A stretch of 64,000 nucleotides of DNA from a bacterium (GTDB lineage: Bacteria > Patescibacteriota > Saccharimonadia > Saccharimonadales > AWTP1-31): contig JAUHZB010000004.1 in NCBI GenBank assembly GCA_030426125.1, positions 9,253-73,252 on the forward strand, in the 5' to 3' direction. The notes under the pieces are model-generated. The model saw nothing but the letters and a program-made list of their open reading frames with translations, was not told where the DNA came from and made no database searches. This document shows positions 12,266 to 52,666 of this stretch, one piece after another. Position numbers and translations under genes: made by a program. How positions within the stretch are numbered: position 1 is the stretch's first letter; every line of letters starts with the position of its first letter.

Positions 12266-15052
12266 GTGAGTGAGGGTAATATGGGAGAAACTACTATCCT
12301 GGGTAACAGGAGGCTGTTCACACAGCCTAATACAAAGGCTTACGAGTCGTTAAAGTGGCTGAAAACAGACTCGGTAATCGTAAATCCGATGACCGATACG
12401 CCGGTTTTTGAACAGAAAAATGTTGAGTTTCCAGAGGGTTGGTCGCTTAACGCCATTAATATAGTGGCTCAGAAATATTTTACCGGTACGCCAGGTACTA
12501 AGGGCAGAGAAAAATCTTTGAAGGATCTAATAGACCGAGTAGTTGATACGATTACCCGACACGGTCTTCAGGAAGGTTATTTTGAAGATGATGATGAAGC
12601 AAGTTCTTTTAAAGAAGAGCTAAAATACGTACTCGCTACTCAGCGGGCGGCATTTAACTCACCAGTATGGTTTAACATTGGTGCTCCAGAACGTTCACAG
12701 CAAGCTAGTGCCTGCTTTATTTTGGCTGTAGAAGACACCATGCCAGCAATACTTAATTGGTATAAAGAAGAAGGAATGATCTTTAAGGGTGGTTCAGGGG
12801 CTGGCATTAACCTGAGTTCGATCCGATCTTCAGTAGAGTCACTAGGCAAAAGTGCTGGAACAGCATCAGGTCCAATGAGCTTTATGCGTGGAGCTGACTC
12901 TTCAGCCGGAGCAATTAAAAGTGGTGGAAAGACTCGCCGAGCAGCCAAAATGGTAATTTTGAACTCTGATCACCCCGACGTTGAGGAGTTTATTTGGTCA
13001 AAAGCTATCGAAGAGCGAAAAGCTCGAGTTCTAAAAGAGAATGGCTTTGATATGAGCTTGGATGGAAAAGATTCATTCTCTGTTCAATATCAGAATGCCA
13101 ATAACTCCGTTCGCGTTTCTGATGAATTCATGGAAGCAGTAGAAAATGACGAGGAGTGGGAACTTAAGGCAGTTAAGGATGGCCGACCTGTTAAAACAGT
13201 TCGTGCTAAAGATATTTTCAGGCAAATTGCTGAAGCTGCCTGGGAGTGCGCAGATCCGGGTATGCAGTTCGATACAACCATAAATCACTGGCATACAACA
13301 CCGAATGCTGGTCGAATAAATGGTAGTAATCCATGTAGTGAATACATGCACCTAGACAACTCTGCTTGTAACCTAGCTAGCATTAACTTACTTAAGTACT
13401 TAAATGACGATCATACTTTCGACATTGAGTCTTTCAAACATACTGTTGAGTTAATCTTTACTGCTCAGGAAATATTAGTCGGATATTCTGAATATCCAAC
13501 CGAGAGTATAACCAAGAATGCTAAGGCTTATCGAGAGCTTGGTATTGGTTACGCTAACCTTGGCGCACTGCTAATGGCTCAAGGTTTGCCATATGATTCT
13601 GATGAAGGACGGGCCCAGGCAGCAGCTATTACAGCTCTATTGACTGGTCATTCATACGCAACTAGCGCTAAGCTAGCTCGTCGTGTTGGACCGTTTGCTG
13701 GATACCATAAGGACCAAGAAGGTATGATCAAGGTTCTTAAGCAACACCGAGCAGCTGTTTCAGATATTGACGCTAGTTTAGTCTCTGAAGACTTATTAAG
13801 CGCAGCTACAACTGCATGGGATGATGCTGTTGAACTTGGCCAGCTATACGGAATTCGCAACTCACAAGCTAGTGTGCTTGCACCTACTGGGACTATTGGA
13901 CTAATGATGGACTGTGATACTACCGGAATTGAACCAGATCTAGGCTTAGTTAAGGTTAAGAAATTGGTTGGTGGCGGTACTATGCATATCGTGAATCAAA
14001 CAGTACCAAGAGCTCTAGACGCCCTTGGCTACACTAAGAAGCAAAGTCAGGAAATTGTCGACTACATTGATAGCGAGAAGACTATCATTGGAGCACCTCA
14101 TCTAAAAGCCGAGCATCAAAATGTCTTTGCTTGTTCAATGGGCGATAACGCCATCCATTACTTAGGACACGTCAAGATGATGTCAGCTGTTCAGCCATTC
14201 TTATCTGGGGCAATCAGTAAAACAGTTAACATGCCAGAGTCTGCTACCGTAGAAGATATTGAGCAACTACACATTGACTCTTGGAAGATGGGCCTAAAAG
14301 CAGTGGCTGTTTACCGAGATAACTGTAAGGTCGGTCAACCACTTAGCATGGCTAAGAAAGAAGGCGCCAAAGAAGCTGCTCCTAAAGTTGAACAGGCAAC
14401 CGAAAAAGACAAGATTGTAGTTAAAGGCACCTATCGTCGACTACTTCCTAAACGACGAAAAAGTAACACCTACAAGTTCCATATAGCGGACCTAAAGGGC
14501 TTCTTTACTGTTAGTGAATACCAAGATGGTACACCTGGTGAATTGTTTATCAATGTATCTAAACAAGGTTCAACCCTATCTGGGCTAATGGACTCTTTCG
14601 CGATTAGTGTTAGCCATGGATTGCAATACGGCGTACCACTGAAGAGTTACGTAAAGACACTACGTGGTACTAGTTTCGCTCCATCTGGTATTACCGATGA
14701 TGAAGATATCCGAACTGCAAGTTCAATCACCGACTATATCGTTCGGAGGTTAGCTCTAGATTATCTATCATTTGATGATCGGCTAGAACTTGGAATGGCA
14801 GATATAGAAGATATGCCAGATGACCAAACTAGCTTACTAGAAGAAGATTCTAAAGTCGATGATTTGTCTGGCGCCGATAACCCAACCACTGAACAGGTGA
14901 TCGAAAAGCCGGTTAGCACAGCTGAAAGATCTGAAGCAAAGTCATCTAAAGATGACACTGCGCCACTTTGCTACAACTGCGGTAATCAGACGCAGAGAGC
15001 AGGCAGTTGTTATGTTTGTAGCGCTTGTGGATCAACTACTGGCTGTAGTTAG
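12266..15052 (+). CDS. nrdJ: Ribonucleotide reductase, class II (adenosylcobalamin-dependent), with a Cys-rich C-terminal tail
   Basis: RNR catalytic core text (NSPVWFN, SACFIL, NPCSEY, SNLASINL-like CNLASINL). The C-terminus is CYNCGNQTQRAGSCYVCSACGSTTGC. The start is GTG 12266 or ATG 12281. Confidence 0.9.
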   Translation: MSEGNMGETTILGNRRLFTQPNTKAYESLKWLKTDSVIVNPMTDTPVFEQKNVEFPEGWSLNAINIVAQKYFTGTPGTKGREKSLKDLIDRVVDTITRHGLQEGYFEDDDEASSFKEELKYVLATQRAAFNSPVWFNIGAPERSQQASACFILAVEDTMPAILNWYKEEGMIFKGGSGAGINLSSIRSSVESLGKSAGTASGPMSFMRGADSSAGAIKSGGKTRRAAKMVILNSDHPDVEEFIWSKAIEERKARVLKENGFDMSLDGKDSFSVQYQNANNSVRVSDEFMEAVENDEEWELKAVKDGRPVKTVRAKDIFRQIAEAAWECADPGMQFDTTINHWHTTPNAGRINGSNPCSEYMHLDNSACNLASINLLKYLNDDHTFDIESFKHTVELIFTAQEILVGYSEYPTESITKNAKAYRELGIGYANLGALLMAQGLPYDSDEGRAQAAAITALLTGHSYATSAKLARRVGPFAGYHKDQEGMIKVLKQHRAAVSDIDASLVSEDLLSAATTAWDDAVELGQLYGIRNSQASVLAPTGTIGLMMDCDTTGIEPDLGLVKVKKLVGGGTMHIVNQTVPRALDALGYTKKQSQEIVDYIDSEKTIIGAPHLKAEHQNVFACSMGDNAIHYLGHVKMMSAVQPFLSGAISKTVNMPESATVEDIEQLHIDSWKMGLKAVAVYRDNCKVGQPLSMAKKEGAKEAAPKVEQATEKDKIVVKGTYRRLLPKRRKSNTYKFHIADLKGFFTVSEYQDGTPGELFINVSKQGSTLSGLMDSFAISVSHGLQYGVPLKSYVKTLRGTSFAPSGITDDEDIRTASSITDYIVRRLALDYLSFDDRLELGMADIEDMPDDQTSLLEEDSKVDDLSGADNPTTEQVIEKPVSTAERSEAKSSKDDTAPLCYNCGNQTQRAGSCYVCSACGSTTGCS

Positions 15053-15083: not shown

Positions 15084-15347
15084 ATGAAAGTCGCTATTTT
15101 GTATCATCCCAAGTCAGACCATGCTCGAAAGGTGGAGGACTATGCTCGTGATTTTTACCACCAGATGCACCATAAACTAGATTTAATTAGTCTTGAGTCT
15201 AGTGAAGGAGCTCATCAGGCTAAACTTTACGACATAGTCCGCTACCCAGCGGTAATGGCTCTGTCTGACAGCGGGGAGCTATTAAAAGTCTGGCAGGGGC
15301 CGGTTTTACCGCTAATGAATGAGGTCTCTTTCTATACAAAGGGCTAA
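15084..15347 (+). CDS. Hypothetical small protein, possibly a thioredoxin/NrdH-like fold lacking redox cysteines
   Basis: 87 aa. The beta-alpha-beta start (KVAILYHPKSDHARKVEDYA) and YPAV (cis-Pro position) resemble the NrdH/glutaredoxin layout, but SDHA stands where CxxC would be. Fold assignment is by eye only. Confidence 0.45.
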   Translation: MKVAILYHPKSDHARKVEDYARDFYHQMHHKLDLISLESSEGAHQAKLYDIVRYPAVMALSDSGELLKVWQGPVLPLMNEVSFYTKG

Positions 15348-15390
15348 ACTAAGCAGGTAGAAGTAGTAACCATTGATTAACACCAAGGAC

Positions 15391-15419
15391 TTGTTAGTTT
15401 ATTACTTGTGTTGTATTAT
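15391..15419 (+). promoter_or_regulatory. Sigma-70-type promoter for the ileS leader
   Basis: TTGTTA (15391-15396), 17-nt spacer, TATTAT (15414-15419). Predicted TSS is near 15426. Confidence 0.45.
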
Positions 15420-15439
15420 TGGCATATAAATGCGTTTCA

Positions 15440-15633
15440 TGTAAATGGATGAGTGACTATCAATCACGAAGCAGTAGAAAGAAATAGTGTACTTAGTAAA
15501 CCACTAGAGTAGAATCTACCGGAACAGACCGTAACCCTGACAACAAGAGCTAAAAGAATCACTTCTTTTGGAAGCCAGATGGTACCTCCCTCAAAGGGAT
15601 CTGGCAGACAGAAGAGGTGATTTTTGTTTTTTT
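15440..15633 (+). promoter_or_regulatory. T-box riboswitch leader (Ile specifier) with intrinsic terminator, controlling ileS
   Basis: The T-box core CAGAUGGUACC forms a canonical antiterminator. Helix gccaga 15574-79 pairs with tctggc 15600-05, the 7-nt bulge is UGGUACC 15580-86, and helix tccct 15587-91 pairs with aggga 15595-99. Upstream elements are a GAUGA K-turn-like motif (15448-52), a short hairpin gtga/tcac with loop CUAUCAA presenting AUC+A (15459-62), a Stem II candidate and F-box-like CCGUAA (15529-34). The terminator arms are 15557-70 and 15609-22, followed by a U-run at 15621-33. Confidence 0.8.
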
Positions 15634-15654
15634 AACTATTACAATAGGAGTAAG

Positions 15655-18585
15655 ATGAAGTTTAAAGCCGGATCTCGCAGAAAAGCACTAGAATACGAAA
15701 AGTATTGGGTTGAGCAGTGGAAAAAAGAAGATACTTTTCGGCGTTCTGTAGAAAATAGACCAAAAGACAATAGCTATGTGTTTTATGATGGTCCACCGTT
15801 TATATCTGGATCACCGCATCATGGCACATTACTTAGTTCTATCGTAAAAGACGTAATTCCTCGTTACCAAACCATGAAAGGTAAGCGAGTCGAGCGAGTT
15901 TGGGGATGGGACTGTCATGGTTTACCAGCGGAGCGGTTTACCGAGAAGAAACTTGGTATTCACTCTCGGCAGGAAGTTCTAGATTATGGTATCGAAAAGT
16001 ATATTGTTGCTACTAGAGAGAACATGATTCAGACCAGCAGTGAATGGGAAGACGTCGTTGATCGCATCGGTCGGTGGGTAGACTTCAAGGGTGCTTACAA
16101 AACCATGGATAAGGAGTATATGGAGTCAGTCTGGTGGGCTTTTAAGGAGCTTTATCAGAAAGGTAAGATCTACGAAGGTGAACGGGTTTTGATGTACTGT
16201 ACGCTTGACGGTACACCGCTGTCAAAAGCTGAAGTAACGATGGATAGTGGAGCCTATCAGGACGTTACTGATCCAAGTGTTTACGTAAAATTTAAGGTTG
16301 TAGATGAAGACTATTCACTATTAGCCTGGACTACAACTCCTTGGACTCTACCAGCCAATAGTGCTGTTGCGGTCAATAAAGAGCTAGATTACGTTAAAGT
16401 AGAGCTAGATGGTGAACGTTTGGTGTTAGCCAAAGATCTAGCGGAGAAGGTATTAACTGATGAAAAACATCAGTCGCTAGATTACAAGGTTATTACAGAG
16501 CTAAAGGGCAGTCAGTTGGTTGGAAAACGCTACCAACCACTATTCGCTGATCGCGGTGAAGGAGCTCATCAGGTTTGGGATGCCGATTATGTTAGCGCTG
16601 AGGATGGTTCTGGTATAGTTCACTTAGCTCCGGCTTACGGTGAAGAAGATTTTGAACTAGCAAATGCCCATAAAATACCAGTTATTCATGTCATTGATCA
16701 GAATGGATACTACAGTGAAGGTGACTGGAAGGGGCAGAATGTCTGGGAAGCAAACAAGCCAATTGCAAAAGAGCTGAAGCAAAGAGGTGATGTTCTTAAA
16801 ATTGACTATATCAGGCACAGTTATCCGCATTGTCATAGGTGTGGCACTCGTTTGATGTATAGGGCTCACCCTAGTTGGTTTATGAATATAGATGGTCAAC
16901 GCCATGAGATGCTAGAAAAGAATCAGCCAATTAATTGGTTTCCACCGCATGTAAAAAATGGCCGTTTTGCCAAGACGATAGAGCAGGCGCCAGATTGGAA
17001 TATCTCAAGAGATCGTTTTTGGGCTACTGGTATGCCGGTTTGGAAGGGTGTCGATAAAGACGGCAATGAACACACTAAAGTGATAGGTAGCTACCAAGAG
17101 CTAAAGGAACTATCTGGCGTAGAGTTGGATGACTACCACCGACCGTGGGTAGATGAGATTACATTTGAGATCGACGGGGTTAGCTACAAACGCATAGACA
17201 AGGTTATGGATAGCTGGTTTGAGGCTGGAAGTATGCCATTTGCCCAGTTCCACTATCCCTTCCAGAATAAGCAGAAATTTGAAGATAACTTCCCGGGTGA
17301 CTTTATCGTCGAGTATATTGGTCAAGTTAGGGCCTGGTTCTATTACATGCACGCCATGAGCGTGGCATTATTTGGTCAGAACTCTTTTAAGAACGTTATT
17401 GTTACTGGAAATGTGGCTGGTAGTGATGGTCGGAAGATGAGTAAAAGCTACGGTAATTATACCGACCCAAATGAACTTATGGACCAATTTTCAGCAGATT
17501 CACTACGCTTCCTTCTTGTGCAGAGCCCACTACTAAATGGAGAGGACTTTACACTACAAGATAAAGAGGTAGGAGATGTTGCTCGTAAGTTGAGTATGAT
17601 CTGGAATATGTATGACTTCTTTACAATGTACGCTGAAGTAGATGACTGGCAGTGGGACGGGGAGCACAAAGACCCTAGTCAGGATTGTGATAACCCCCTC
17701 GATCTTTGGATAATTAGCCGCGTTCATCAGTTGGCTGAGGAGATAGAGCAACATATTGACGGTTATGACTTGCCAAACGCAACTAAGCCAATCCTGCCTT
17801 TCATTGACGACGCTAGTAACTGGTATGTAAGGCGTTCACGGCGTCGTTTCTGGAAAAGCGGGGATGATAAGGACAAGAATAATGCCTATCGGACACTACA
17901 CTATGTTCTGACGCATCTTAGCATCATCATGGCACCGATTACTCCATTCCTCTCCGAAGAACTCTACAGCAAGCTTACAGGCGGTGAAACGTCGGTTCAT
18001 TTACTGGATTGGCCAAAATCTGGGAAAATAGATCAGACTTTGGTAAATAAGATGAAAGTGGTCAGGCACTTAATTACAATTGGGCTTGGTCTTAGAGCCC
18101 AGAATTCATTAAAAGTTAGACAGCCACTAGCTAGCGTAACCCTAAAAAGAGCTTTACCGGAAGAATTAGCAACAATCTTAAAAGAGGAGTTAAATGTTAA
18201 AAAGGTTCTAGTAAGCGATAAACACCCTGATCCTGAAAAAACCTTCCTAGAGAACATAGAAGAAGGTAATATTTCGCAGTTGTATAAGTTGGAGTTGGAC
18301 ATGGAGCTGACTCCAGAGCTCGTCGAAGAAGGGCTGGTTAGAGAAGTTATACGGCAAGTTCAGAATAACCGTAAGAAAGCTGGCTTAGAGGTTGATGATC
18401 GAATAAAGCTGGTTCTAAAATCTGAAGATCAGGGCCTAGCGCGAGCAATTAAGAACTTTAGTAATGAGATACAAGCAGAAACCTTAGCTACTAACTTATC
18501 TGAAGAAGGTAGCCTGGCTTACAGTAGTAAGCTGAAGGTAGATAGTAAAGAGTTGGTAATTGAGTTAGAAAAAGCGGAATCTTAG
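15655..18585 (+). CDS. ileS: Isoleucyl-tRNA synthetase
   Basis: HIGH-type motif (PHHGT) and KMSKS. The start is moved to ATG 15655 (SD aggag at 15646-50) because the ORF-track N-terminal extension overlies the T-box terminator. The 976-aa layout lacks a C-terminal zinc-finger region, so it is probably a type-2 IleRS. Confidence 0.95.
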   Translation: MKFKAGSRRKALEYEKYWVEQWKKEDTFRRSVENRPKDNSYVFYDGPPFISGSPHHGTLLSSIVKDVIPRYQTMKGKRVERVWGWDCHGLPAERFTEKKLGIHSRQEVLDYGIEKYIVATRENMIQTSSEWEDVVDRIGRWVDFKGAYKTMDKEYMESVWWAFKELYQKGKIYEGERVLMYCTLDGTPLSKAEVTMDSGAYQDVTDPSVYVKFKVVDEDYSLLAWTTTPWTLPANSAVAVNKELDYVKVELDGERLVLAKDLAEKVLTDEKHQSLDYKVITELKGSQLVGKRYQPLFADRGEGAHQVWDADYVSAEDGSGIVHLAPAYGEEDFELANAHKIPVIHVIDQNGYYSEGDWKGQNVWEANKPIAKELKQRGDVLKIDYIRHSYPHCHRCGTRLMYRAHPSWFMNIDGQRHEMLEKNQPINWFPPHVKNGRFAKTIEQAPDWNISRDRFWATGMPVWKGVDKDGNEHTKVIGSYQELKELSGVELDDYHRPWVDEITFEIDGVSYKRIDKVMDSWFEAGSMPFAQFHYPFQNKQKFEDNFPGDFIVEYIGQVRAWFYYMHAMSVALFGQNSFKNVIVTGNVAGSDGRKMSKSYGNYTDPNELMDQFSADSLRFLLVQSPLLNGEDFTLQDKEVGDVARKLSMIWNMYDFFTMYAEVDDWQWDGEHKDPSQDCDNPLDLWIISRVHQLAEEIEQHIDGYDLPNATKPILPFIDDASNWYVRRSRRRFWKSGDDKDKNNAYRTLHYVLTHLSIIMAPITPFLSEELYSKLTGGETSVHLLDWPKSGKIDQTLVNKMKVVRHLITIGLGLRAQNSLKVRQPLASVTLKRALPEELATILKEELNVKKVLVSDKHPDPEKTFLENIEEGNISQLYKLELDMELTPELVEEGLVREVIRQVQNNRKKAGLEVDDRIKLVLKSEDQGLARAIKNFSNEIQAETLATNLSEEGSLAYSSKLKVDSKELVIELEKAES

Positions 18586-31056: not shown

Positions 31057-31085
31057 AAAACGGTCTCCGGACCGTTTTTTATTTT
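31057..31085 (+). terminator. Rho-independent terminator
   Basis: aaaacggtc (31057-65), loop tccg, gaccgtttt (31070-78), followed by T-run TTTTTTATTTT. Confidence 0.8.
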
Positions 31086-52635: not shown

Positions 52636-52666
52636 AAAACCCCTAGATGATTTTCTAGGGGTTTTT
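52636..52666. terminator. Bidirectional rho-independent terminator between convergent ORF 52309 and rpmA
   Basis: AAAA-cccctaga (52640-47), loop tgattt, tctagggg (52654-61), TTTTT. A-run and T-run flanks serve both strands. Confidence 0.8.

Follow-up and report, generated by a model that had tools for sequence, protein, structure and literature searches.

We analysed a 64,000-nucleotide stretch of DNA (contig JAUHZB010000004.1; hereafter the window; G+C content approximately 41%) from a Saccharibacteria-like genome of the candidate phyla radiation, and report here on the leader of its isoleucyl-tRNA synthetase gene, ileS. As read from the sequence, the open reading frame (ORF) before ileS ends at 15347 and the ATG start codon of ileS is at 15655-57, which leaves a gap of 307 nt; all features described below lie on the forward strand. 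The ileS ORF ends at 18585, and its product, which begins with MKFK, matched the Pfam family tRNA-synt_1 at 1e-115, identifying it as isoleucyl-tRNA synthetase (IleRS). A Shine-Dalgarno (SD) sequence, AGGAG, is present at 15646-50. A preliminary description of this DNA had rejected the TTG at 15568, the ileS start given in an ORF list, and correctly so: because homologues begin at the same MKF residues as the ATG at 15655, which is preceded by AGGAG, the upstream start is an artefact of ORF listing. Judging from its sequence and those of its relatives, the leader that occupies this gap is, with good probability, a T-box riboswitch that responds to tRNA-Ile and regulates ileS through transcription attenuation, with a rewired expression platform.

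Our sample comprised 81 sources, i.e., the window and 80 loci retrieved by their IleRS. All 80 loci were from Candidatus Saccharibacteria/Saccharimonadia genomes, with IleRS amino-acid identities of 65-81%. A motif scan detected the same leader ahead of ileS in 78 of the 81 sources. Two covariance models (R1 and R2) were constructed here, and with these exactly one plus-strand match per source was obtained in 80 of the 81 sources; those of the full-length model lay in each case ahead of ileS and on its strand, with E-values from 1e-9 to 1e-40 and with 97% of pair cells kept. The sole source without a match (L060) was a contig cut 547 nt upstream of ileS. Outside these positions, neither covariance model had a match in the 64-kb window or across the 862 kb searched. 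Minus-strand matches of model R1 were considered as separate elements and rejected, as they were mirror images of the same hairpins. Conservation of the leader in 80 of 81 sources, together with the covariation described below, argues for more than a chance resemblance.

The 3′ half of the leader has the organization of a T-box discriminator. A purine string in the linker, AAGAG (15545-15549), matches RRRxG, the motif found ahead of Stem III in T-box discriminators; AAGNG was near-invariant in an alignment of 40 leaders. Stem III (15550-15571) consists of a 5′ arm (CUAAAAGAA, 15550-58), a UCAC loop (15559-62) and a 3′ arm (UUCUUUUGG, 15563-71), and its core helix, AAAAGAA/UUCUUUU (15552-58 with 15563-69), extends to the pair C15550-G15571 to give 9 bp. 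It is separated from helix A1 by AA (15572-15573), which was found in 76 of 78 leaders, so that the window carries the full discriminator motif RRRxG-Stem III-AA in the form AAGAG-Stem III-AA. The receptor for the tRNA 3′ end, i.e., the canonical 'antiterminator', follows at 15574-15605. It is composed of helix A1 (GCCAGA 15574-79 with UCUGGC 15600-05), the 7-nt T-box bulge UGGUACC (15580-86), helix A2 (UCCCU 15587-91 with AGGGA 15595-99) and a CAA loop. This is the textbook A1-bulge-A2 arrangement that had been read from the window alone; all of its elements were located at the same positions, and both helices were found to covary in relatives. The bulge fitted UGGNANC in all 78 leaders, with UGGUACC in 67, UGGAACC in 5, and UGGCACC, UGGUAUC and UGGUAAC in 2 each, its fourth base varying in 7 leaders. 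The U at the fourth position of the bulge would pair with A73, the usual base at this position in bacterial tRNA-Ile. Lineage-specific hairpin insertions were observed in the Stem III loop of L020, L027 and L052, and long insertions at the A2 apex of L012, L039, L049, L003 and L001, with the flanking helices kept in each case; insertions in Stem III and A2 have been reported by reviews for translational T-boxes too.

Three nucleotides after the A1 3′ strand begins the 3′ arm of a lower stem (CAGAAGAGGUGAUUUUU, 15609-15625), which runs into a U-run (UUUUUGUUUUUUU, 15621-15633) and would form an intrinsic terminator. Its 5′ arm (15554-15570) is drawn from Stem III, running from the end of the 5′ arm of that hairpin through its loop and into its 3′ arm. 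The terminator stem of 14 bp with two G-U pairs (15557-70 with 15609-22), followed by a U-run, was exactly as first described, and the minimum-free-energy (MFE) fold lengthened it to 17 bp. In the MFE fold of 15420-15640, A1-bulge-A2 sat on top of this 17-bp lower stem as one long nested hairpin, with an energy of -55.7 kcal/mol compared with -44.2 +/- 4.3 kcal/mol for shuffled sequences (z = -2.68; 0 of 200 shuffles as good). The terminator 5′ strand thus consists of the Stem III loop and 3′ arm, and not of the 3′ strands of A1 and A2. The SD sequence, located 13 nt past the U-run, was unpaired in both folds.

The same arrangement was observed in the relatives. A first U-run of 4-7 nt directly followed a stem of 12-17 bp in all 78 leaders, for the collection of which the presence of a U-run was one criterion. 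Per-sequence folding of 77 leaders gave a lower stem of median 14 bp that overlapped Stem III by a median of 10 nt, with the terminator fold favoured over the Stem III fold by an average of 10.6 kcal/mol. A1 stayed 6/6 paired in 75 of 77 terminator-state folds, and A1 and A2 were nested intact inside the terminator in 75 of 77 MFE folds. Stem III reached at least 5 bp in 73 of the 77 folded leaders, a count from which L052 was left out, as its loop insertion exceeds the extracted segment. A simple terminator scan did not call the leader hairpin, because its apical 'loop' is a 38-nt structured insert. Ordinary terminators consisting of an A-tract, a GC hairpin and a U-tract were present elsewhere in the window, in intergenic positions 31057-31078 and 52636-52665; the former, at least, is symmetric and was called on both strands.

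The register of the alignment mattered for the analysis of covariation. When all 77 3′ domains were aligned with MAFFT, the arms of Stem III and of the terminator fell out of register between two length classes, and we therefore used a gap-free MAFFT seed of 22 leaders, model-fitted alignments of 76 and 80 leaders and a MAFFT alignment of 40 full-length leaders that was not fitted to any structure. In the last of these, Stem III was 97.2% paired with compensatory changes in 6 of 9 pairs, A1 was 100% paired (4/6 compensatory) and A2 was 94.9% paired (5/5 compensatory), compared with 39-47% pairing in slid controls. In the model-fitted alignment of 80 leaders, the six helices of the tRNA-bound fold were 95-99.8% paired (slid controls, 36-52%); here Stem III was 96.0% paired and compensatory in 9 of 9 pairs, with A1 and A2 again at 4/6 and 5/5. 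The competing lower stem was 98.7% paired in the gap-free seed, with 8 of 14 pairs compensatory, and 96.5% paired in the 76-leader alignment, with 13 of 14 pairs compensatory and slid controls at 38-55%.

Divergent haplotypes provided a further view of this competition. In L058, L073, L064, L079, L006 and L054, the three strands had changed coherently; for example, L073 contains AUGAUG/CAUCAU/AUGGUG in place of the purine and pyrimidine runs of the window. Duplexes between the 5′ arm and the 3′ arm averaged -16.1 kcal/mol for native combinations, -8.7 kcal/mol for cross-haplotype combinations and -6.7 kcal/mol for shuffled ones. Stem III and the lower stem are two mutually exclusive helices, and this pattern of substitutions points to selection on both of them. 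The comparison of orthologous ileS leaders that had been proposed for the window thus proved strongly positive for both competing helices, and the early observation that the terminator overlaps Stem III rather than the antiterminator 3′ strand holds across the family. The most divergent leader, L079 (1827-1921), comes from a metagenome-assembled genome of the Patescibacteria group. In this leader, the partner of the terminator 3′ arm is the 5′ arm and loop of Stem III (ACUACCAC) instead of its 3′ arm, and the competition with Stem III is retained.

The 5′ half of the leader would decode the tRNA. Stem I (15431-15473) is ultrashort. Its helix of 4 bp (GUGA 15453-56 with UCAC 15464-67) closes a 7-nt specifier loop, CUAUCAA (15457-63), which displays the Ile codon AUC (15459-61) and a conserved A (15462). 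The loop read NNAUCAN in all 76 parsable leaders; the specifier is AUC followed by A in 76 of 76 and the downstream gene codes for IleRS, and thus the specifier matches the regulated gene. The Stem I helix was 100% paired in the 40-leader MAFFT alignment, with 3 of 4 pairs compensatory, and 99-100% paired across alignments, with 4 of 4 pairs compensatory on the model-fitted 80. Stem I was a 4-bp helix with a 7-nt loop in all leaders, with no long distal platform (double T-loop), in agreement with what had been proposed for the window. The coupling of such a Stem I to a terminator-type output also extends to the relatives, as a hairpin and U-run are present in all leaders and the SD sequence is not sequestered.

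Stem I had also been described as preceded by a K-turn-like GAUGA. Part of this stood: GA motifs flank the helix at 15451-52 and 15468-69 in the window, and GA was found on the 5′ side in 52 of 76 leaders and GAN on the 3′ side in 66 of 76 (GAA in 45). On the other hand, a 5-bp hairpin (15436-49, by eye) is inserted where the K-turn bulge would be; in relatives, its position is kept and its sequence is not. A tentative base helix of 3 bp, UGC 15431-33 with GCA 15471-73, was also seen by eye and reads AAC/GUU in L005.

Stem I is followed by Stem II (15474-15519), with a lower helix (GUAGA 15474-78 with UCUAC 15515-19) and an upper helix (15485-89 with 15502-06). Between them are the two strands of an S-turn (loop E), AAGAAA (15479-84) and GAGUAGAA (15507-14). 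The lower helix was 97.4% paired with 5 of 5 pairs compensatory in the model-fitted alignment of 80 leaders, and in the MAFFT alignment four of its five positions were paired in 39-40 of the 40 sequences; the S-turn strands, AAGAA and (A/G)NUAGA, were near-invariant. The IIA/B element (15520-15540) begins with a 3-bp Stem IIA (CGG 15520-22 with CCG 15529-31), which was 96% paired with 2 of 3 pairs compensatory in the model-fitted 80. The IIA hairpin carries an F-box-like NCG(U/A)NA, with CG and A invariant (CCGUAA, 15529-34, in the window). A IIB pseudoknot may form between CAG (15525-27) and CUG (15538-40). In 57% of leaders, compared with 20% of shuffles, at least 4 nt of the loop could pair with the linker downstream; several different sequence pairs were involved, which is suggestive of such a pseudoknot.

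Transcription of the leader could start from a candidate sigma-70-type promoter (15391-15419), TTGTTA (15391-96) and TATTAT (15414-19) separated by 17 nt, which scored 9/12 in our scan and predicts an RNA 5′ end near 15426. This promoter, already pointed out in the preliminary description, is present, and a match of at least 9/12 was found in 52 of 76 homologous leaders, in which the promoter-like -10 elements end 16-20 or 28-36 nt ahead of the Stem I hairpin (33 nt in the window). Taken alone, the match is no better than chance, with 2 found and 2.1 expected in 1 kb. Upstream of the leader are an 87-aa ORF (15084-15347) with no Pfam match and a gene for a class II (B12-dependent) ribonucleotide reductase with a TSCPD domain (12266-15052); rplU is located downstream of ileS.

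In approximately 33 of 78 related loci, the distance between the U-run and ileS exceeded 60 nt. Many relatives contain, between the terminator and ileS, a small acidic ORF without a Pfam match, a GNAT acetyltransferase (PF00583, 1e-14), or both, as in L016 (3790-4011) and L030 (3235-3474 and 3450-4004). Given this location between the T-box terminator and ileS, these ORFs would be co-regulated by charging of tRNA-Ile.

The two mutually exclusive folds suggest a mechanism. During transcription, Stem III would fold first and the A1-bulge-A2 hairpin next. The strand 15609-25, which can pair with the Stem III loop and 3′ arm, would emerge three nucleotides after A1. In the absence of tRNA, or with charged tRNA bound, this strand would zip from the base of Stem III and oust the Stem III 5′ arm, building a stem of 14-17 bp directly before the U-run, where RNA polymerase would terminate; A1 and A2 would merely stay as the top of the terminator hairpin. 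Uncharged tRNA would lock Stem III onto the discriminator and withhold the 5′ strand of the terminator. With the base of Stem III protected, the terminator could not nucleate and ileS would be transcribed. The anatomy of the leader, its conservation and the covariation of both alternative helices are directly visible in the alignments; tRNA binding, termination and a protective role of docking are what we infer for the device as a whole.

Stem III is the sole element that differs between the two folds, and previous studies of other T-boxes are relevant to its proposed role. Without Stem III, the antiterminator binds no tRNA appreciably, the discriminator being formed by Stem III together with A1/A2 (PMC7583486). 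For the ileS T-box of M. tuberculosis, it has been described that Stem III remains coaxially stacked when the bound tRNA is uncharged, whereas a charged-tRNA mimic, although still paired to the bulge, is accompanied by undocking of the GAG linker and displacement of Stem III (PMC12647780). We lean towards the view that the leaders described here form a third architectural class of T-box, belonging to the candidate phyla radiation. In this class, A1-bulge-A2 would be a static receptor for the tRNA 3′ end nested in the terminator, and the aminoacylation signal would be read only via docking of Stem III and the purine linker.

The closest resemblance is to the truncated ileS T-boxes of Actinobacteria (M. 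tuberculosis/smegmatis and Nocardia farcinica; TBDB 'class II'; PDB 6UFG, 6UFM), as had been suggested for the window. These were compared by description, and common descent with the Saccharibacteria leaders is not implied. Both groups regulate the same gene, display the same AUC specifier and share one domain order, with a short Stem I that lacks an elbow platform, a Stem II S-turn, a IIA/B element, a purine linker, Stem III and an A1-UGGN bulge-A2 unit; both also tolerate insertions in Stem III and A2. The F-box is CCGUCA in Nocardia and CCGUAA here. The main difference concerns the output, which is an SD sequestrator in Actinobacteria and a hairpin followed by a U-run here, so that the class II trait of SD sequestration in the OFF state is absent from the Saccharibacteria leaders. 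In addition, the M. tuberculosis sequestrator needs a large-scale rearrangement of the antisequestrator (PMC12647780), whereas the competing helix described here uses Stem III and leaves A1/A2 intact. Sequestration of the SD by the A2 5′ strand (CUCC with GGAG) was considered as a candidate and rejected, since this pairing occurs only in the sub-clade of the window.

Canonical class I T-boxes (B. subtilis tyrS/glyQS; RF00230) likewise sense tRNA with a specifier and a UGGN bulge, have a discriminator composed of Stem III, A1 and A2, and end in an intrinsic terminator that is more stable than the ON-state fold. However, class I terminators derive their 5′ strand from the A1 and A2 3′ strands (PMC7583486), which is not the case here, and the long class I Stem I with its distal double T-loop platform is replaced by a 4-bp helix. 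The logic of the proposed switch is also that of the trp leader (2:3 versus 3:4), in which a middle strand is common to an early helix and a later terminator helix. In trp-type attenuators a stalled ribosome or a protein holds the early helix, whereas here a docked tRNA would do so.

Several observations weigh against a tRNA-Ile-responsive attenuator of this kind. Searched at its gathering threshold, the Rfam T-box model RF00230 matched neither the window nor any of 13 relatives, and even at E ≤ 10 it gave no match on 15300-15720. The lack of a covariance-model hit had been named beforehand as grounds for refutation, and formally this result falls on that side. We read it as a limit of the RF00230 model, because covariation among the orthologues is strongly positive and the defining T-box features checked by hand, namely the specifier, the bulged A1/A2, the RRRxG-Stem III-AA motif, the S-turn and the F-box, are present. 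Three weak Rfam matches (sau-13, SOX2OT and sR58) were rejected as chance. No tRNA-Ile gene with which to compare the bulge and the discriminator base was found in the window or in 60 loci. In known T-boxes, a G-U pair that closes A2 next to the bulge is a conserved steric sensor; at this position (15587/15599), 41 of 78 leaders have G-U, 14 have A-U and 15, the window among them, have U-A. Among divergent leaders, Stem III was predicted to be weak or absent in L019, L070 and L072 and was marginal (5 bp) in L064, and the model-fitted alignments lean towards the structure of their model. Moreover, transcriptional T-boxes are said to need a long Stem I and an elbow-binding platform for fast tRNA capture (PMC7583486), and kinetic control therefore looks difficult for a leader that lacks this platform.

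Some of these points would fit other explanations. The missing Rfam match and the chance-level promoter match are what one would expect of an unremarkable hairpin of terminator type that happens to lie in a long intergenic region, but a chance resemblance is exceedingly improbable and in effect already refuted, as one element per genome was found in 80 of the 81 sources with the E-values and pair retention given above. A variable A2 sensor pair, and the tendency of reduced genomes to lose regulation, might instead indicate the relic of a T-box in decay, or an attenuator that has become constitutive and leaky and has lost its response to tRNA. Against such decay, which we consider very unlikely, the AUCA specifier, the bulge, the S-turn and the linker purines are near-invariant, and compensatory changes keep all helices across genomes whose IleRS are only 65-81% identical, implying purifying selection on the whole device.

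Two further alternatives accept a functional T-box and differ in how it would act. The OFF state could break A1/A2 through a pairing that escaped detection, with the lower stem only an accessory; this is how every characterised T-box is described (PMC7583486), and MFE predictions can miss alternative folds. Such a canonical switch is nevertheless quite unlikely here. The A1/A2 3′ strand (AGGGAUCUGGC) has no downstream complement, because the U-run comes directly after the lower-stem strand, 13 of the 14 lower-stem pairs show compensatory changes, and A1 remains intact in 75 of 77 terminator folds. Alternatively, the hairpin and U-run could act on mRNA stability, processing or translation, or could need a protein factor or Rho. 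T-boxes with an ultrashort Stem I characterised so far act on translation, and the terminator scan passed over the hairpin with its 38-nt 'loop'. We regard an output other than intrinsic termination as unlikely, given that the SD is 13 nt past the U-run and unpaired in either fold, that a stem of 12-17 bp precedes 4-7 U in all 78 leaders, and that the window contains ordinary terminators. Transcription attenuation through competition between Stem III and the terminator is thus the reading that we prefer.

Among the papers available to us, none joins T-boxes with Saccharibacteria, Patescibacteria, the candidate phyla radiation or TM7, and a prior description may exist. In TBDB, the class II model was applied to Actinobacteria and otherwise only to class I matches whose Stem I is truncated (PMC7778990), and this route would have bypassed the Saccharibacteria leaders. 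T-box surveys that depend on RF00230 or on this route therefore probably underestimate the number of leaders of this kind.

T-boxes serve as a model for RNA-RNA recognition and have been proposed as antibiotic targets. Two ways in which the aminoacyl group could switch a T-box off are allowed by current models, and the Saccharibacteria leaders would separate them naturally: as A1/A2 is common to both states, only docking of Stem III could carry the signal. If the mechanism proposed here is true, transcription termination can serve as a kinetic read-out of an ultrashort Stem I decoder, a combination deemed unfavourable in current reviews, which challenges the rule that transcriptional T-boxes have a long Stem I. 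These leaders would also extend T-box regulation to Saccharibacteria, ultra-small episymbionts with few known regulators.

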